Shown: positions 28,297-36,878 of the stretch, piece by piece
How the letters are laid out: every line of letters starts with the position of its first letter
Position numbering within the stretch: the first letter of the stretch is position 1
Assembly (NCBI GenBank): GCA_963749705.1
Contig: CAVVNQ010000008.1
Span: 192,001 to 256,000, forward strand
Reading direction: 5' to 3'
DNA: 64,000 nucleotides
DNA from: an uncultured Chloroflexia bacterium
Lineage (GTDB): Bacteria > Chloroflexota > Limnocylindria > Limnocylindrales > CSP1-4
Program-made: the position numbers and the translations under genes
The notes under the pieces: model-generated
Told to the model about the DNA's origin: nothing
Seen by the model: the letters and a program-made list of their open reading frames with translations, nothing else
The model's database searches: none

Positions 28297-29016
28297 ATGC
28301 AGCTCGACACGGTGTCCACGATCGGGGATCCATTCGCCAACGCGGAAGCCAACGCCTGCCGCATCGACCCGGTCCAACGACCGGGAACACGGCCGGCAAT
28401 CCACATCACCAGCGCGCCACCGACCTTGGAGGCTTTCATCGACAGCCTCTCGGCACGAGACTTCGAAAGGCTCGCGGCGTGTCTTGGTCCGGAGGCTCGC
28501 CTCCGTGCGCTGGTTCCGGCCGGCGCCGGGCAGTCTCTGGGCCGCGCCGCGGTCGTCGGCCAGTTCGCCGGCTGGTTCGGTGACGCCACGAGGTTTGACC
28601 TGTTCGAGCGGCGGATCGCGGCCGCGACGGATCGGTGGCTCATGTCCTACCGCATCGACCTCGACGAGGCCGGTGGTCGATACGCCATCGACCAGCACCT
28701 GTTCTGCGACCTCAGGGACGAGGCGATCGATCGCATCGACCTCCTGTGCTCCGGCTTCCGACGGGTCCGGATCTCCGACGACGACGATGTCCACCACTAC
28801 GACGCCGGGACGCTCGGCTGCGCCGATGGGCTGGCGGATGCCTTCCGGGCCCGCCTTGCCCAGGTCCCGGTGGGCGAATCGCTCGTCGTGATCGCCCGGG
28901 ACCCGGCTGCGAGAGAGGACCTCCCATCGCTGGCGAGGCTGCTCGGCAACCGCGTGCTATCGGTCACCACCAAGGACGACGGACACCTCGAGATGACAGT
29001 GGAGCGAGCACGATGA
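28297..29016 (+). CDS. SnoaL/NTF2-like domain + TusA-like sulfur-carrier domain
   Basis: N-terminal part ends in LLCSGF. C-terminal DAGTLGCADGL...VIARDPAAREDLP...LGN. The start codon is uncertain. Confidence 0.7.
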   Translation: MQLDTVSTIGDPFANAEANACRIDPVQRPGTRPAIHITSAPPTLEAFIDSLSARDFERLAACLGPEARLRALVPAGAGQSLGRAAVVGQFAGWFGDATRFDLFERRIAAATDRWLMSYRIDLDEAGGRYAIDQHLFCDLRDEAIDRIDLLCSGFRRVRISDDDDVHHYDAGTLGCADGLADAFRARLAQVPVGESLVVIARDPAAREDLPSLARLLGNRVLSVTTKDDGHLEMTVERAR

Positions 29017-30291: not shown

Positions 30292-31908
30292 ATGCGACAT
30301 CGCAAGCCATTGGCGTTCGTGACCGTCATCGCGTTGCTCGCGAGCGTGACGGCCCTGTCGGCGGGGGCCGCGCTCGCCAGACCGTCGCTGCCCGAGGGCG
30401 GCATGGCGCTCAAGCGCACGGTGAGCGTCGACATGGCCGGCTACGCCAAGCAGCATGGCCCGCACTCGCAGTTCGAGTGCATCGTCGCGAGCGGCGGCGC
30501 CAACACCGACCTCGACTGCGACGACCCGTTCCCCAACAACGAGCCCGACATCGAGGTCAATCCCGCCAACGCGAACAACATCATCGCGAGCTCGAACGAC
30601 TACGGCTCGTGCTGCGACCAGTTCTACACGTCGCTCGATGGCGCGGCGACGTGGACGACCGGCAACATGTCGATCAACAACCCGCAGCAGACCGGCAGCG
30701 ACCCGGTCACGGTGTTCGACGTCAAGCACGGCGTCGCGATGCACTCGTCGCTGAACTACTCGTTCCAGCTGCCCAGCGGCGAGGCCTGCCGTGGCGACCT
30801 GGTGGTCTCTCGGTCGATGGACGCGGGCATCACCTGGGATCCGGCGATCGTCGTCGACTCCGGGTACGGCTGCGACCTGTCGAACCACCAGCTGTTCAAC
30901 GACAAGGAATGGATCGTCACCGACAACAATCCCTCGTCGCCGTACTACGGGCGGACCTACATCACGTGGTCGAAGTTCGATTCGATCAAGGGCGCCTACC
31001 AGTCGTCCGCCATCTGGGCCACGTACTCCGATGACGGCGGCAAGCACTGGACCAAGGGCCGGGAGATCTCCGGCTCGAACGCCGATCTGTGCACGTACCA
31101 GGAGACCGGACCGGCCGGACAGTGTGACGAGGACCAGTTCTCCGTTCCCACGATCGGCCCTGACGGGACGGTCTATGTCGCCTTCCAGAACGAGCAGAAC
31201 GAGGCGTTGTGGGGCGATGGTGCGTTCGCCAACCAGTACCTGCTGGTCAAGTCCACCAACGGCGGCAGGACGTGGTCCAGCCCGACGTTCGTGGTCGGCC
31301 TGCAGGACGGCACGAACGACTACCCGACCAACGTCAGCGGGCGCCAGACGCTCACCGGCTACCAGCTTCGCGTCAACTCGGCCGGGAACATCGTGGCGGC
31401 TCCGGACGGCACCCTGTACCTGGTGTTCAGCGACAACCGCAACGGGGTCCACGATTCGGATAATCCCGTCACCAACATCGACGTGTTCGTGATGACCTCC
31501 ACCGATGGCGGGGCCAGCTGGAGCGACCCGATGGCCGTCGACACGGCAGCGGGTGACCAGTGGTTCCCGTGGGTTGCGGTCAACCCGACCGACGGCTCGA
31601 TCGGGGTCCTGTACAACGACCGCGGGGCGTCGAACGGCGATACGTACAACGCGTCGCTATCCGAGGGCACGCCCGGCTCGTTCACCAAGACCGTCGTCAG
31701 CACGGCCCCGTCCGACCCCGTGCATTCGCGGTACTTCCGAGCGGGCGAGGACGCGGTCGGCTGTGAGGCGTGCGCGACGTTCAACGGCGACTACGTCGGC
31801 CTCGACTACGGGTCCGACGGCACGGCCCACATGGCCTGGACGGACATGCGAGTCCCGTCCGACCAGGAGGGCTTCTTCTACCAGTACATCTTCTACGCCC
31901 AGAAGTAG
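30292..31908 (+). CDS. Secreted sialidase-fold (BNR/Asp-box) protein
   Basis: Signal peptide and five Asp-box-like motifs (SLDGAATW, SMDAGITW, SDDGGKHW, STNGGRTW, STDGGASW), plus DKEW and GDY. Confidence 0.85.
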   Translation: MRHRKPLAFVTVIALLASVTALSAGAALARPSLPEGGMALKRTVSVDMAGYAKQHGPHSQFECIVASGGANTDLDCDDPFPNNEPDIEVNPANANNIIASSNDYGSCCDQFYTSLDGAATWTTGNMSINNPQQTGSDPVTVFDVKHGVAMHSSLNYSFQLPSGEACRGDLVVSRSMDAGITWDPAIVVDSGYGCDLSNHQLFNDKEWIVTDNNPSSPYYGRTYITWSKFDSIKGAYQSSAIWATYSDDGGKHWTKGREISGSNADLCTYQETGPAGQCDEDQFSVPTIGPDGTVYVAFQNEQNEALWGDGAFANQYLLVKSTNGGRTWSSPTFVVGLQDGTNDYPTNVSGRQTLTGYQLRVNSAGNIVAAPDGTLYLVFSDNRNGVHDSDNPVTNIDVFVMTSTDGGASWSDPMAVDTAAGDQWFPWVAVNPTDGSIGVLYNDRGASNGDTYNASLSEGTPGSFTKTVVSTAPSDPVHSRYFRAGEDAVGCEACATFNGDYVGLDYGSDGTAHMAWTDMRVPSDQEGFFYQYIFYAQK

Positions 31909-31957
31909 CCGGAAGCCTGCGCCGGTCACCGACCGGCGCCAACTCAGGCGATAACGG

Positions 31958-31990
31958 AACGGGGTCGACGCGTCGCGCCGGCCCCGTTTC
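31958..31990. terminator. Hairpin between convergent genes
   Basis: AACGGGG...CCCCGTTT inverted repeat. Confidence 0.5.
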
Positions 31991-32027
31991 TGGGTCCTGT
32001 GGGTCGAACCGCCTTCGCGGAGCGGCG

Positions 32028-32333
32028 TCAGCCGGCCGTCGGGCCCGGCGCGTAGGCGACCGCGACCACGGCCTTGGTCTCGTATCCGGAGCCGTCACGA
32101 CCCATGAACGCACCCGCGTGGCGCAATGGCATCGAGGTCATCGACACCATGCGGAGTCTGCGGTTGGCGGCCAGGTCCGCGGCGTCACGGGCGATGTCCG
32201 CATACAGCGTCATCGGGTCGATCTCCGACCCGTAGTCACCTGGTGCGTAGACAACGATCAGCTGGCCATCGCCAGCATCGAACTCGGCACGGCCCACGGT
32301 CCACCCCTTTTCGAGACCGCCTTCGTCGAACAT
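32028..32333 (-). CDS. Small hypothetical protein
   Basis: Natural-looking composition from MFDEGG onward, with host-like codon usage. Confidence 0.5.
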   Translation of the reverse strand: MFDEGGLEKGWTVGRAEFDAGDGQLIVVYAPGDYGSEIDPMTLYADIARDAADLAANRRLRMVSMTSMPLRHAGAFMGRDGSGYETKAVVAVAYAPGPTAG

Positions 32334-32554
32334 GAGATCGCCGATCGGCACGCCGAACCTACGGCGCACCAGCCGGCCGGTCAAGCGCTGCGCGGATCCA
32401 TGTCCGGTCCCGCCGATCCGCCGGACGGCGACCCGGTGACCCGGTCGCAGACGTCGGCCGGCGTTTCTTCCGTGAGCCACGCGACGATGGGTGCGCCGGC
32501 GTGCATCATGGATGGACGCCGGGTCACGCCACGGCGAGCAGCGGGAGGGATGCC

Positions 32555-32947
32555 ATGCCGACGCTGACGATCGAGGACCGGACGGCCACCGGGACGCCGA
32601 CGGGGTCGATCACGATGCCGGACATGCCGGACCGGATCACGCTCCGGGACCTGATCCGGCTGCGCGTCCGCGAGGAGGTTGCCCGGTACAACCTGAGGCC
32701 GGTCGAGCGGTTCAATGGGCTGGTCCAGCCGGCCGGCGCCCAACCGACCCTCGGCGGCTTCCTGATGGGCAAGCCGCGCCGGATCGACTGGGAGGTGCAG
32801 GCAGATATCGCCATCGAAAGCTTCCTGCGCAACGGGTTCTTCGTGCTGATCGACGGCCGGCAGGTCACCGATCTCGACGCCGAGGTCCGGCTGACCGGGA
32901 CGCTCGATGTCGGGTTCGTGAAGCTGACACCGCTCGTCGGGGGATGA
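32555..32947 (+). CDS. Ubiquitin/MoaD-like protein ending in Gly-Gly
   Basis: C-terminus FFVLIDGRQV..LD......DVGFVKLTPLVGG*. GGGAGG RBS. Confidence 0.7.
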   Translation: MPTLTIEDRTATGTPTGSITMPDMPDRITLRDLIRLRVREEVARYNLRPVERFNGLVQPAGAQPTLGGFLMGKPRRIDWEVQADIAIESFLRNGFFVLIDGRQVTDLDAEVRLTGTLDVGFVKLTPLVGG

Positions 32948-35484
32948 GCATGGGCGCCGGCGCGAACCCCGCCGACCTCACGCTCGAGGACCACCGGCGG
33001 CGGGCGGGTCTCGCCGTCGATGCGGCGATCGTCGCGGCGACCGGGCATCCGTACCTCGTACGAACCCTGGCCCCGGTTCGCGAGCTGGCCGAGGCCACGC
33101 CCGATGACCTCCGCTCGATCGTGATCGTGCTGATGGATCGGGCGTCACGGGGCGCATCGGTGCTCGACCGCGTTCGCGGCGTCGTGGGCGGCCGGCCCGC
33201 CGGATGGATCGCGTCGATGGTGCTCACGACCCTGGGCAGCCGCCGTCCGCCGTTCACCCGCGCCGACATCGCGCTGCTGCTCCGCCTCGCCGCGGAGGTG
33301 ACGCGCCGGCACCGCGGCCACGAGGAGTGGCTCCAGGTGTCGCTGTTCTCCCAGCCGGTCGCGGCGGCCGAGCGCGCGGTCAAGGCCGGCGGCCTGGCCG
33401 AGCTCGAACCGCCGATCCATGAGCTCGCCGATGCCCTCGAGGGCTTCACGCAGCACTCGGGCGCGCAGGTCGCGAAGTACCGCGCGCGGCTGGCCGCGCT
33501 GCTGCGCCCCGGCGAATCGGACGCGGAGCCAGGTCGCGCGGCGATCGATCCGTCGATGATCGCGGACGGCGACACCTGGGGCGCCACGTGGCGTGAACGC
33601 GTCACCGCCCTGTCGTCGAGAGAGGCGGCGCTGGTCGCGCACCTCCCGCTCGCCGCCGGCGTGACGCCGAGCGCCGCCTGGCGACGTCGGGCGGGAGCGC
33701 TTGCCGGCCAACCGGGCGCCGGCGACCTGCTGCGCGCGATGCTCGACGGTGCCACGACCTCGCGGACCACGCGCGAGCCGCAGCGCTACCAGATCGGCGA
33801 CCAGGTGCTCGTCGTCGCCCAGCCGGCGATCAGCGATGCGAACGTCCTGCTGCTGCGAGGCGCCATGTGGGCGGCCGCATCGCTGGACGAGCCGTGGGTC
33901 ACGGATCTGCTCACGGCGATCGGCCTCCACTTCGGGACCTCGGGCGGCTCCAGCAACGTGGCCCGGGACGAGCGACTCGCGAACACGGCCGCGGCGGCGC
34001 TGGGCTCGATGGCGGGGCCATCGGCGATCGCGGGGATCGGCCGGATGAAGGCGAAGGTCACCAACCGCAACGTGTCGCGGCAGATCGCCAAGGCGCTCGC
34101 CGCCGCGGCCGGTCGCGCCGGGATCACGCCCTCGGAGCTGCTCGAGGCGGCCGTCCCCACGCTCGGCCTCGATGCCGACGGGCGACGCGAGATCGCGGTC
34201 GCCGATCACGTCGCCGTGTTGACGCTCGAGGGCGACGAGGCATCGCTCGCATGGCGGGCTCCCGACGGGCGGGTCACGGCGCGGCCGCCGGCCGCCATCG
34301 CCGCGGACAAGGCGGCGATCGCCACGGCGAAGGCCGAGCTCGGGGAGCTGCGCAAGGCGCTGGCCGTGGAGCGGGGACGGATCGAGGAGCTGTACGTCGA
34401 GGATCGATCATGGGCGATCCAGGAGTGGCGGACGCGGTATCTCGAGCACCCGCTCACCGGATCGATCGGTCGGCGGCTGATCTGGGCATTCACCGACGGC
34501 GAGCGAGTGGCGACGGCGATCCCCGACGGCGACGAGCTCCTGGCGGCGGACGGCGGGCACGTGCAGCCGGGGCCGGACGCCACCGTCCGGCTGTGGCACC
34601 CGATCGTTGCGTCGGAGGCGGACATCGCGGCCTGGCGGACGCTGATCGTCGAGCGGCGCATCCGCCAGCCGATCAAGCAGGCGTTCCGCGAGGTCTACCG
34701 GCTGACGCCGGCGGAGGAGGAGACGGAGACCTACTCGAACCGGTTCGCCGCGCACATCCTCCGCTACCCGCAGGCTCGGGCGCTGATGACCGCGCGCCGC
34801 TGGGGCTCGAACTTCCTCGGCCCGTACGACGGCGGGTTCAACGGCGTCGCGAAGCGCGTGTTCCCGACACACGAGCTGCGCGCGGAGTTCTGGCACGACG
34901 CGATCGAGGCCGAGATGCACGGCGACGTCGCCCACTGCACGACCGACCAGGTGCGGTTCGTCCGGCCCGGTCCTCCGGAGGCGACCGTGCCGCTGCGTGA
35001 CGTCCCGTCGATCGTGCTGTCCGAGGCGATGCGCGACGTCGACCTGTTCGTCTCGGTGACGTCGGTCGGGGCGGACCGCAACTGGCAGGATGGCGGGCGC
35101 GACCGTGGCCACGTGTTCGACGGGTACTGGACGGCGTACTGGGATCAGCCGCTCACGGCGACGGCGAACGTCCGCCGCGACGTCCTCGAGCGCATGATCC
35201 CGGGCCTCGCGATCGCGGAGCGGCTCGAGGTCCGGGATCGCTGGCTGGTGGTCCGGGGCGATCTGCGCACCTACCGGATCCACCTGGGCAGCGGGAACAT
35301 CCTGATGGAGCCGTCCGACACGTACCTGTGCATCGTCCCGACCCGCGGCGGGTCGGCGGAGCGCCTGTTCCTGCCATTCGACGACGATCCGACGCTCAGC
35401 ATCATCCTCAGCAAGGCGTTCCTCCTGGCTGCGGACAACCGGATCACCGACCGGACGATCCTGAGCCAGATCCATCGGCCCTGA
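32944..35484 (+). CDS. DUF4132-type large protein
   Basis: RLWHP, QPIKQAFREVY, YSNRFAAHIL, SEAMRDVDLFV and YRIHLGSGNI. ATGA overlap with the upstream gene. Confidence 0.8.
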   Translation: MSMGAGANPADLTLEDHRRRAGLAVDAAIVAATGHPYLVRTLAPVRELAEATPDDLRSIVIVLMDRASRGASVLDRVRGVVGGRPAGWIASMVLTTLGSRRPPFTRADIALLLRLAAEVTRRHRGHEEWLQVSLFSQPVAAAERAVKAGGLAELEPPIHELADALEGFTQHSGAQVAKYRARLAALLRPGESDAEPGRAAIDPSMIADGDTWGATWRERVTALSSREAALVAHLPLAAGVTPSAAWRRRAGALAGQPGAGDLLRAMLDGATTSRTTREPQRYQIGDQVLVVAQPAISDANVLLLRGAMWAAASLDEPWVTDLLTAIGLHFGTSGGSSNVARDERLANTAAAALGSMAGPSAIAGIGRMKAKVTNRNVSRQIAKALAAAAGRAGITPSELLEAAVPTLGLDADGRREIAVADHVAVLTLEGDEASLAWRAPDGRVTARPPAAIAADKAAIATAKAELGELRKALAVERGRIEELYVEDRSWAIQEWRTRYLEHPLTGSIGRRLIWAFTDGERVATAIPDGDELLAADGGHVQPGPDATVRLWHPIVASEADIAAWRTLIVERRIRQPIKQAFREVYRLTPAEEETETYSNRFAAHILRYPQARALMTARRWGSNFLGPYDGGFNGVAKRVFPTHELRAEFWHDAIEAEMHGDVAHCTTDQVRFVRPGPPEATVPLRDVPSIVLSEAMRDVDLFVSVTSVGADRNWQDGGRDRGHVFDGYWTAYWDQPLTATANVRRDVLERMIPGLAIAERLEVRDRWLVVRGDLRTYRIHLGSGNILMEPSDTYLCIVPTRGGSAERLFLPFDDDPTLSIILSKAFLLAADNRITDRTILSQIHRP

Positions 35485-35746
35485 CCGACCACGACCACGT
35501 TCGAGATCACCTGGACCGAGCCCGACGGCGCCGCGTCATCGTTCCTCGTCTACGGCATGACCGTGTGCCTCCGCGACGAGGCGAGGTACGACGGTCAGCC
35601 ATGCGTCGTGCGCGGCATGAAGATCGACAAGGACACCCTGATCCTGATCGGCCAGGCCCCGGGCGACGCCCGCAACCAACGCCGCCGGCGACAGCATCTT
35701 CACGATCGTCCACAGCGACACCGTGTGCTTCCAGTGCACGTACTGA
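35485..35746 (+). pseudogene. 3' remnant of a Cys-containing, probably secreted beta-rich protein
   Basis: Strongly codon-biased but startless: TTFEITWTEPDG...YGMTVCLR...PCVV, then a frame change, then ATNAAGDSIFTIVHSDTVCFQCTY*. Confidence 0.5.
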
Positions 35747-36062
35747 GCGCCGGCGCAGCCCATCACGGGCCGGGCGGGCTCCGCGATGCCATGACGGAGG
35801 GTCGCCGGGCCTGACGGACGGCGATCCCACGTCTCCACGGCCCGGTACCGCGGGGGCAGGACCATCGTCCGGGCGACGTTCGATTCGGTGCGCGAATGCA
35901 CCGCAATGTGGCATCCGCGGGCCCGGATCGAGCGTCACGCACGGTAATGGGTGGTTGAGGGTACCGGCGTCCGTTGTGCCGCCGACGATCGGACGGTAGT
36001 GTCCGAATGATCCGGCGGAGTGCCCACCGTCTATCCCATGGGCAGCACTGATTGGAACGATA

Positions 36063-36878
36063 TTGCCCCTGGTGCCAGATCCCTGGCCCGAGTATCCCCG
36101 CGCGCCGTTTTCGGCTGACGGGCTGACGTTCGACGTGCTCCGGCACGTCGTGCCCGGTGCTGCCACCGTGATCCTCCTCCACGAGCTGCCGGGTCACGGC
36201 GAGCCAACGATCGCGGTCGCCGATCGCCTGGTCGCGGGCGGCTTCTCGGTCGCGATGCCGGTGCTGCTGCCGCCCGCCATTCGCCGTCCCGGCCTCCGGC
36301 AGGCGATCGGGAACGGCCGCAGCGTGCTCGCATCCGATGCGTTCGCGCCGCTCGCGCTTCGGAAGGATCGTCCGGTGACCGCGTGGCTGCGAAGGCTCGC
36401 GACCCACGAGGCGATGGTCTCGGGCCGGCCGGTCGGGATCGTGGGCATGTCGCTGACCGGCAGCTTCGCGCTCGCGGCCGCCGTCGATCCCGCGGTCGGT
36501 GCCGCTGTTGCGAGCCAGCCGTCGATGCCGCCGTCGCTGTTCAGGTGGCAGCTCGACCTGGCGATGTCGAACGCCACCCTCGATGAGCTCGTCGATCGCG
36601 CGGAGGCCGGGTTCCGCGTGCGTGCCCTGCGCTTCTCGCGCGACCCCATCTCGCGCGGCCGGCGGATGCGGTTCATCGGCGACATGCTGCCCAACGCCGA
36701 GATCGTCGAGGTCCCGACCCGGAGCCCGATCCGGCATTCGGTGCTCGCGTCCGCGACGCGCGCCCGCGAGGGTTCGCCGCTCCATTCGGCGCTGGTGGGC
36801 ACCATCTACTACCTGCGCGAACAGCTCGGCGCCCCGCCGGACAACCGGATCCCCCGGATCACGAGGGGGTTGTGGTGA
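36063..36878 (+). CDS. Dienelactone hydrolase family protein
   Basis: LLHELPG, GIVGMSLTG, D and HSVL. Confidence 0.8.
   Translation: MPLVPDPWPEYPRAPFSADGLTFDVLRHVVPGAATVILLHELPGHGEPTIAVADRLVAGGFSVAMPVLLPPAIRRPGLRQAIGNGRSVLASDAFAPLALRKDRPVTAWLRRLATHEAMVSGRPVGIVGMSLTGSFALAAAVDPAVGAAVASQPSMPPSLFRWQLDLAMSNATLDELVDRAEAGFRVRALRFSRDPISRGRRMRFIGDMLPNAEIVEVPTRSPIRHSVLASATRAREGSPLHSALVGTIYYLREQLGAPPDNRIPRITRGLW

Follow-up and report, generated by a model that had tools for sequence, protein, structure and literature searches.

A two-gene locus and its conservation

The present work concerns two adjoining genes in a 64,000-nucleotide stretch of DNA from an uncultured Chloroflexia bacterium (contig CAVVNQ010000008.1, positions 192,001 to 256,000), which was analysed as a whole and is referred to here as the window. 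The first gene (32555..32947, + strand) encodes a ubiquitin-like protein (Ubl) of 130 amino acids, P0001, which ends in a free C-terminal Gly-Gly and is assigned a beta-grasp fold on the basis of its translation, an AlphaFold2 model and fold matches to MoaD, SAMP1 and ubiquitin. The second (32944..35484, +) encodes a large partner, P0002, in which a variable helical N-terminus is followed by a DUF4132 domain, an alpha/beta middle domain and a DUF7737 domain. Together they probably constitute a module not described before, for protein tagging or sulfur carriage, that is linked to stress responses.

Translation of 32555-32947 reproduces the open reading frame (ORF) reported in the initial annotation of this DNA, a 130-residue protein ending in FVKLTPLVGG with a TGA stop immediately after it. 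The codons of Gly129 and Gly130 (GGG GGA) together with this stop occupy 32939..32947 (+), and the string GGGGGA also stands at the position expected for the ribosome-binding site of the next gene; across the family, a GGAGGA or GGGGGA resembling a Shine-Dalgarno sequence is formed by the two glycine codons in 20 of the 80 loci that have the Ubl gene upstream, as against 0 of 29 in which the Ubl gene comes last. The junction GGGGGATGAGCATG contains an ATG at 32944 that overlaps the Ubl stop (ATGA) and another ATG at 32950, and the frame is open to 35484, giving a P0002 of 846 residues from the first ATG or 844 from the second. The annotation had described an ATGA overlap with an 846-residue ORF. 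The overlapping ATG is present, but the start of P0002 is probably the one at 32950, 2 nucleotides past the Ubl stop, because the close relatives L002 and L003 carry a GTG at the second start position with no ATG at the first, and because the database protein of the window contig (P0270) is 844 residues long. Under either choice of start the two genes are tightly coupled. A promoter and terminator scan of 31900-36200 found no promoter-like site and, ahead of the Ubl gene at 32441-32461, one hairpin that resembles a terminator.

The annotation had proposed that the two genes form a module whose large protein binds, processes or is modified by a Gly-Gly-ended Ubl, and it had been set down beforehand that the proposal would fail if the small protein lacked a beta-grasp fold, if the Gly-Gly were not conserved, or if the genes were not linked in other genomes. 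All three properties were found. As regards the terminus, a word-indexed search with the Ubl retrieved 1004 proteins with E-values of 0.001 or better, nearly all of them 130 residues long, and Gly-Gly ends 119 of the 120 homologues among the matches listed. An exhaustive search of 1.84 billion representatives returned 1116 matches, with the terminus present in 128 of the 148 representatives among the matches listed; the remaining 20 are mostly truncated or frameshifted, together with a few genuine variants, such as those that end in ...LVAG or carry two further residues after the Gly-Gly. G129 and G130 are invariant in an alignment of 122 Ubl sequences, and in genomic DNA the Gly-Gly is followed directly by the stop codon in 50 of 53 Ubl loci, whose origins span Chloroflexia, Kribbella, cyanobacteria, Planctomycetota, Verrucomicrobiota, many Bacteroidota and Photobacterium. 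Different loci use different glycine codons at the Ubl end, and the constraint therefore acts on the protein. More than 95% of full-length members, from at least seven phyla, have Gly-Gly as their very last residues. The module is common, and its Ubl family comprises more than 1000 clusters at 90% identity. The phyla represented among the module loci are Chloroflexota, Actinomycetota, Bacteroidota, Planctomycetota, Verrucomicrobiota, Cyanobacteriota and Pseudomonadota; beyond these loci, Gemmatimonadota is to be added, as is Deinococcota from the literature. Judged from the sequences, the retention of both length and Gly-Gly end in more than 1000 homologues is a pattern far beyond chance. An apparent DUF4132-Ubl fusion of 969 residues (P0176) was rejected as a frameshifted read-through, with about 220 Arg-rich out-of-frame residues between its parts, and the N-terminal extensions of other Ubl matches look like miscalled starts.

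The AlphaFold2 model of the Ubl, built from the 122-sequence alignment, has a predicted local distance difference test score (pLDDT) of 88.1 and a predicted template modelling score of 0.83, and its last seven residues are unstructured, with pLDDT below 50 in the tail. The top rows of a Foldseek comparison are nearly all ubiquitin-fold proteins, led by the MOCS2A/MoaD chain 5mpo_A (probability 0.97) and followed by Urm1, SAMP1, ubiquitin and NEDD8, with no match at an E-value of 0.001 or better; CysO also appears, beside MOCS2A/MoaD and SAMP1, among the best structural matches. Together with the wider structural search, the model supports a confident prediction of a beta-grasp fold that is nearest to MoaD and SAMP1. 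No Pfam or NCBIfam family matches the Ubl at E-values up to 1, the curated ThiS, MoaD and ubiquitin families included, nor does PADLOC, and a Ubl profile gave only noise against the sequences of the PDB, in which no solved relative was found by sequence.

Linkage of the two genes was evaluated from both sides. Starting from the Ubl, a P0002 relative adjoins on the same strand in 44 of 53 loci, mostly directly downstream but upstream in L009, L013 and L032, and several of the nine loci that have no adjoining relative are contig ends. Starting from the large protein, with its C-terminal half as the query, 68 of the 76 loci obtained have a Gly-Gly-ended Ubl beside the DUF4132-DUF7737 gene. Among 301 evenly drawn Bacteroidota genomes, 9 have a DUF7737 score above the family cut-off, and these 9 and no others are matched by the Ubl profile, at adjacent coordinates; the chance of this exact overlap is 2e-17 if the genomes are assumed to be independent. 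The same sample holds one extra DUF7737 fragment, which contains five stops and is accompanied by no Ubl. Where the partner is absent at a locus, it is present elsewhere in the genome in 3 of 4 and 5 of 5 cases, two of the latter five having a truncated or frameshifted Ubl. Actinomycetes often carry two or three tandem DUF4132-DUF7737 paralogues for a single Ubl. Apart from the activating enzyme discussed below, no conserved further neighbours were detected; the clusters obtained are shadow ORFs or common enzymes and regulators that have no fixed position, such as a short-chain dehydrogenase/reductase, an aldo-keto reductase, an ATP-binding cassette ATPase and a response regulator. Because fold, Gly-Gly conservation and linkage all hold, it is well supported that the two genes form a module and that the large protein acts on or with the Ubl; that they belong to a single functional unit is certain.

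Around the pair, the window holds a gene for a BNR-repeat protein, a small ORF of unassigned function on the opposite strand, a weak dienelactone-hydrolase-like ORF and, about 3.5 kb upstream at 28297-29016, a gene for a protein with SnoaL-like and TusA sulfurtransferase domains; none of these is a defence gene. Directly after the pair, and outside the module, lies the remnant of a neighbouring gene (35500..35746, +), which corresponds to the 3' third of a gene for a 239-amino acid protein that has lost its first 135 or so codons and has undergone an internal deletion and a change of frame. The segment 35500-35679 matches residues 136-194 of the 239-residue protein of L003 (66% identity, E 2e-27), and 35678-35746, in a different frame, matches residues 218-239 of the same protein (82%). 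The remnant was detected solely by this comparison, since a Pfam search of the ORFs of 35485-36062 gave no match. The annotation had taken the remnant as a sign of recent insertion. The remnant itself is real, but insertion is unsupported: the pair occupies the same place in the 90%-identical relative L057, compared with which the window is about 290 nucleotides longer past the stop, and the 239-residue gene, which in L003 (7971-8690) is intact and directly follows the pair, is almost wholly deleted in L057, so that the neighbouring gene has decayed by deletion. The distance from the BNR-repeat gene to the Ubl gene is about 0.5 kb in the window (31988-32494) and about 1.9 kb in L057 (2349-4245), a difference which indicates that both flanks of the pair are prone to insertions and deletions.

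The large protein and the covariation of its cysteine with the Ubl tail

P0002 matches two Pfam families far above their curated cut-offs, which are 27 bits in both cases: DUF4132 (PF13569) at residues 442-620 (34267..34803, +; E 1.2e-44, 152.8 bits) and DUF7737 (PF24879) at residues 741-843 (35164..35472, +; E 1.8e-40, 137.5 bits). The label of DUF4132-type protein given in the annotation was therefore accurate, with DUF7737 to be added to it. At least 6431 DUF4132-DUF7737-like proteins were scored, and both domains are found in all but two of the 120 among the matches listed. The N-terminal region (residues 1-435, 32944..34248, +) is mostly helical and weakly conserved, with few conserved columns in the alignment and only weak matches to designed helical repeats, while the C-terminal 410 residues are much better conserved: 68 alignment columns are invariant among 36 sequences drawn from several phyla. 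The invariant residues of the DUF4132 domain are H552, K578, Q579, R582, E583, E591, S598, H604 and R618, and those of the middle domain, an alpha/beta sandwich at about residues 595-707 (34726..35064, +), are E694, R697, D698 and D700.

No solved relative of the large protein was found by sequence in the PDB. An AlphaFold2 model of residues 436-846 has a pLDDT of 82.5; with this C-terminal half as the query, Foldseek gave no match in the PDB at an E-value of 0.001 or better, and fold searches gave no synthase. In a wide structural search, the DUF7737 part of the model (positions 300-411) is covered by only seven rows, all of which are chains of ubiquitin-conjugating enzymes (E2) or E2 variants (1zdn, 4.8; 2cyx, 4.7; 2f4w, 4.5; 2y9m, 4.4; 1zuo, 4.4; 8qat_D, 4.2; 4r8p_L, 4.2). 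The model thus suggests a weak resemblance of DUF7737 to the E2, or ubiquitin-conjugating (UBC), fold. Its elements run in the order helix, four strands, a loop bearing Cys796, and two helices, which we take to fit the UBC layout. The candidate active-site residues lie within 35281..35331 (+): His780 (35281-35283), Asn785 (35296-35298) and Cys796 (35329-35331) are invariant in 74 of 74 sequences, and Cys796 is the sole invariant cysteine of the large protein. His780 and Asn785 would be comparable to the residues of the “HPN” motif of E2 enzymes. The spacing from His780 to Cys796 is 16 residues; the corresponding spacing in E2 enzymes is shorter.

If DUF7737 is a cryptic E2-like domain, then the Ubl would be activated by a ubiquitin-activating enzyme (E1) and loaded on Cys796, with the E1 supplied in trans in the genome of the window; the chances that this reading is right are judged to be about even. 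The Ubl would be made in mature form with a flexible Gly-Gly tail, the tail would be adenylated by an E1 of the ThiF/MoeB type (operon-encoded in some Bacteroidota, and a MoeZ-like enzyme acting in trans here), and the activated Ubl would be passed to Cys796, with His780 and Asn785 in the “HPN” role. From there it would be transferred to a lysine, either in a target or in the large protein, with the variable helical N-terminus making the choice, and the DUF4132 core would have an additional role.

The association of the tail with Cys796 can be followed into a sister clade of the family, which was encountered in the Bacteroidota sample and is represented by loci L152-L236 (Chryseobacterium, Flavobacterium). 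Here proteins of about 1670 residues with DUF5724, DUF4132 and DUF7737 are adjoined by a divergent Ubl. In all five sister-clade genomes of the unbiased sample the Ubl tail reads L[AVT]G[ST]YW instead of ending in Gly-Gly, Cys796 is replaced by Ser and Asn785 is lost, whereas His780, K578, R582, E583, E591, S598, H604, R618, E694, R697, D698 and D700 are all retained. Over all loci that have both genes, 106 combine Gly-Gly with Cys, 84 combine G[ST]YW with Ser, and none is mixed. The ORFs that fall outside the pattern used to call these residues comprise 7 that still have the Cys, one fragment, and five Cys-less paralogues with Arg or His; the last (L079, L099, L100, L101 and L114, from Actinomadura and Spirillospora) stand in tandem arrays in which a paralogue with the Cys is present as well. 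Such pairs of Cys-less and Cys paralogues recall the inactive E2 variants that are paired with active E2s. Within its DUF5724 part, one sister-clade member has a weak, sub-threshold match to the NEL family of E3 ligases (E 0.0054).

The covariation bears on a different interpretation of the pair, in which the Ubl serves as a stable subunit, regulatory or structural, whose tail plugs a pocket of the large protein, and in which Gly-Gly or G[ST]YW is conserved for binding. A non-covalent partnership of this kind is rather unlikely. It accounts well for the sister clade, where the pair is still strictly linked (5 of 5 sampled genomes, 84 two-gene loci) with a G[ST]YW tail and Ser, so that the partnership evidently survives without a Gly-Gly end, and for the absence of an E1 from most loci. 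It leaves without explanation the placement of Gly-Gly as the very last residues in nearly all full-length members of so many phyla, the invariance of Asn785 and Cys796 only alongside Gly-Gly, and the presence, in 10 loci, of an E1 gene whose translation is coupled to that of the pair.

Activating enzymes and the chemistry of the tail

The annotation had stated that no E1 was in sight. That holds for the window, in which neither an E1 nor a JAB protease gene was found: the ThiF matches of the genome fall on contigs C3 and C6, its sole Prok-JAB match falls on C3, and the window is on C8. It does not hold for the family, nor for the genome. A ThiF-family protein of 234-245 residues (PF00899, E 1.5e-68) is encoded directly 3' of the pair in 10 of 129 loci of the Gly-Gly type, from Pedobacter and other Sphingobacteriaceae, a Saprospiraceae metagenome-assembled genome, Fluviicola and one unassigned Bacteroidota metagenome-assembled genome. 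In L017 the E1 start overlaps the stop of the large gene, and in L013, where the large gene comes first, then the Ubl gene and then the E1 gene, the E1 has been retained despite the rearrangement. None of the 85 loci of the sister clade, which lacks the Gly-Gly end, has an E1. The operon E1s keep the nucleotide-binding glycines and lack CxxC pairs, and their conserved Cys is placed at what we take to be the cross-over-loop Cys of MoeB and ThiF. The genome of the window has a single E1, a MoeZ-like fusion of rhodanese and ThiF that passes a MoeB model and shares 34% identity with the Pedobacter operon E1; because it is encoded on another contig, it must act in trans if it is used by the pair. 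SAMP and TtuB are conjugated without an E2 by means of a shared E1, which makes an E1 in trans plausible. The rhodanese-ThiF gene belongs to a cluster on C3 (locus L054, 1099-3600) with genes for a CysO/MoaD-like protein that ends in Gly-Gly plus five residues and for a cysteine synthase. Just downstream stands the sole Prok-JAB match of the genome (C3:308767-309141), and the arrangement resembles a CysO-type route to cysteine that includes a protease for trimming.

The same observations invite an interpretation in terms of sulfur transfer, in which a MoeB/MoeZ-type E1 would adenylate and thiocarboxylate the Ubl and the sulfur would be delivered to a substrate held by the DUF4132-DUF7737 protein, by analogy with MoaD-MoaE, ThiS-ThiG and CysO-CysM; Cys796 could then bear a persulfide or an acyl-disulfide. 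Such a sulfur-carrier pair deserves to be taken seriously even though it is probably not the correct explanation. It would agree with the best structural matches of the Ubl (MOCS2A/MoaD, SAMP1 and CysO), with the minimal, MoeB/ThiF-like character of the operon E1, with the position of the only E1 of the genome, as a rhodanese fusion, beside a CysO-like gene and a cysteine synthase, and with the TusA-domain protein upstream of the pair, and the covariation of Gly-Gly with Cys suits sulfur chemistry equally well as a thioester. The large protein itself is a poor fit: Pfam and the alignment reveal no recognised sulfur-insertion, PP-loop or Fe-S signature and only one invariant Cys, its architecture (800-1700 residues, a variable helical N-terminus, up to three tandem paralogues per Ubl) is unlike that of the known synthases, and the neighbours do not form a conserved biosynthetic cluster.

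The proposal that Cys796 is charged with the Ubl in the manner of an E2 must be weighed against contrary evidence. With regard to the E2-like domain, no UBC-clan match was obtained from Pfam for 36 family members at E-values up to 10, a DUF7737 profile search of the PDB returned no E2, and an hhalign comparison of DUF7737 with 8 Prok-E2_B domains, taken from 301 Pseudomonadota genomes, was not significant (probability 0.75%, P 0.075), the best local alignment, likewise non-significant, setting Cys796 on the Prok-E2_B Cys. With regard to activation, no E1 is found nearby in 119 of 129 Gly-Gly-type loci, that of the window included; the operon E1s fall below every NCBIfam equivalog cut-off for MoeB, ThiF and UbaA, and no E2-docking domain was recognised in them; and in five other genomes that have the pair and no operon E1, the only ThiF homologues are housekeeping-like and 31-41% identical to the operon E1. 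The closest structural relatives of the Ubl, moreover, are sulfur carriers. As for the covariation, 80 of the sister-clade loci were retrieved with a pattern that includes the tail itself, and the change probably reflects a single evolutionary event, because the alternative state is carried by one clade. Finally, the DUF4132 core is strongly conserved even in proteins that have no Cys796, and the main activity of the large protein may therefore not need this residue.

In a bolder variant, the pair alone would be a complete tagging machine that is independent of any E1. The DUF4132 core, whose invariant Lys, Arg, Glu, Asp and His residues lie on an alpha/beta sandwich that has no clear relative among solved enzymes, would here be a new Ubl-activating domain that charges the Gly-Gly tail for transfer to Cys796, and the helical N-terminus would be an E3-like chooser of targets, the whole being switched on by DNA damage. 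This variant would explain the 119 Gly-Gly-type loci that have no nearby E1, and it is regarded as clearly improbable.

Bacterial ubiquitin-like conjugation is a young field, in which few operon types are known (Bil, Bub and CBASS Cap2/Cap3). If Cys796 does carry the Ubl, then a large family of domains of unassigned function would become a new branch of E2-like enzymes without detectable sequence similarity to known E2s, and a damage-induced bacterial tagging pathway would be open to test in tractable hosts, Pedobacter and D. radiodurans among them. The two states of the family, Gly-Gly with Cys and G[ST]YW with Ser, provide a ready-made natural control. If the sulfur-carrier alternative is true instead, the pair points to a hitherto unrecognised thiolation pathway.

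Published counterparts and known systems

A literature search found no paper that names DUF7737, and among the papers naming DUF4132 none on its function; nor was a family-wide picture of the Ubl with DUF4132-DUF7737 found in print. A counterpart of the pair has nevertheless been studied, as drA0165-drA0166 of D. radiodurans. In the available part of one report (PMC8533742), these genes form an operon under the control of DdrO and IrrE that is strongly derepressed on depletion of DdrO, with a radiation/desiccation response motif (RDRM) at -83 that has support from chromatin immunoprecipitation sequencing, and the DRA0166 protein increases after mitomycin C in an IrrE-dependent manner. The accessible portion of a second report (PMC9650054) describes DR_A0165, under the name “SEP068184”, as increased after irradiation and H2O2, with a deletion that raises H2O2 tolerance; in pull-downs the protein binds the thioredoxin DR_A0164. 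That portion reports no RDRM before DR_A0165, which contradicts PMC8533742. It lists a sequence of 83 residues ending in LAGG, which the authors call Deinococcus-specific, and a predicted MOCS2A/SAMP1-like structure with the neighbours 5MPO, 1WGK, 1VJK, 6JBZ, 6JC0 and 2L52.

The likeness of this operon to the pair of the window extends to the placement of a small gene upstream of a DUF4132 gene, to the LAGG end and a C-terminal pattern that, by eye from the listed sequence and not from an alignment, are shared with the Ubl family, and to the structural neighbours given in the available text, which are the same entries recovered for the Ubl of the window. DUF4132 and DUF7737 both match in the D. 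radiodurans control genome. The papers differ from the present work in that their accessible parts make no mention of a Gly-Gly end, a ubiquitin-like role, a link with DUF4132-DUF7737, or E1 and E2 enzymes; what is new here is the E1 operons, the genome-level co-occurrence, the weak match of DUF7737 to the E2 fold with its invariant residues, the covariation of tail and Cys, and the Cys-less paralogues. The published Deinococcus work suggests DNA damage or oxidative stress as the inducer. It also touches two of the interpretations considered above: according to the available part of PMC8533742, moeA and moeB are not co-regulated with DRA0166, which speaks against a sulfur-carrier pair, and in the accessible portion of PMC9650054, the pull-downs of N- and C-terminally tagged DR_A0165 share their partner sets in part, which would suit a non-covalent subunit.

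A more distant parallel is the yehF-yehH-yehI region of E. coli (the MolR region), where YehI bears DUF4132 with a WGR domain. The seen portion of PMC6590174 lists molR, the E. coli WGR-DUF4132 gene, among LexA-regulated genes, which echoes the damage induction in Deinococcus. YehI, by eye, ends before the DUF7737 region and represents a DUF4132 architecture without a Ubl; the downstream YehK was considered as a candidate Ubl and rejected because it has no Gly-Gly end. Boxes of the LexA type (GAAC-N4-GTTC) are not enriched upstream of the pair, being present in 3 of 68 loci against a background of 14%, with gene starts that were crudely estimated, and the window has only one such site, with 1 mismatch.

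The annotation had also hinted at a role in anti-phage defence, of the kind played by Bil, Bub or CBASS Cap2 systems, which concerns the biological role of the pair and would be compatible with the mechanisms considered above. The defence systems among the known bacterial Ubl-E1-E2 operons, in the published descriptions so far as they were available, speak for the idea, and the tandem, diversifying paralogues with their variable N-terminus resemble sensor diversification. The hint found no support in the searches made: PADLOC gave no match for the Ubl and only a 9.8-bit noise match for the large protein, no defence genes stand among the scanned neighbours, and neither the Ubl nor the DUF7737 profile found relatives in viral contigs, where the Ubl had no match and a single weak DUF7737 match fell in no real ORF, within a phage structural module. 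The regulation published for Deinococcus, in the parts of the reports at hand, is by DNA damage. A defence role is accordingly very improbable.

The sulfur carriers and protein modifiers MoaD/ThiS/CysO, SAMP, TtuB and Urm1 resemble the module in their beta-grasp fold, in a free Gly-Gly end that needs no processing and in the minimal MoeB-like E1 found in some of the module operons. The Ubl of the window belongs to none of their sequence families, and it is distinguished by its 130 residues, with an insert of about 30 residues. Its partner is equally distinct from those of MoaD-MoaE, ThiS-ThiG and CysO-CysM, since it matches only DUF4132 and DUF7737, and not MoaE, ThiG, CysM or a tRNA thiolase. 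From the Bil systems, the Bub systems of types 1 and 2 and CBASS Cap2/Cap3, as set out in the available parts of their descriptions, the module differs in having no linked JAB, mostly no E1 and no PADLOC match, and in that its candidate E2 is the C-terminal domain of a protein of 800-1700 residues without detectable E2 sequence similarity; it nevertheless shares with them a Gly-Gly-ended Ubl, an adenylating E1 in a subset of loci, and a candidate domain for carrying the Ubl on a Cys.

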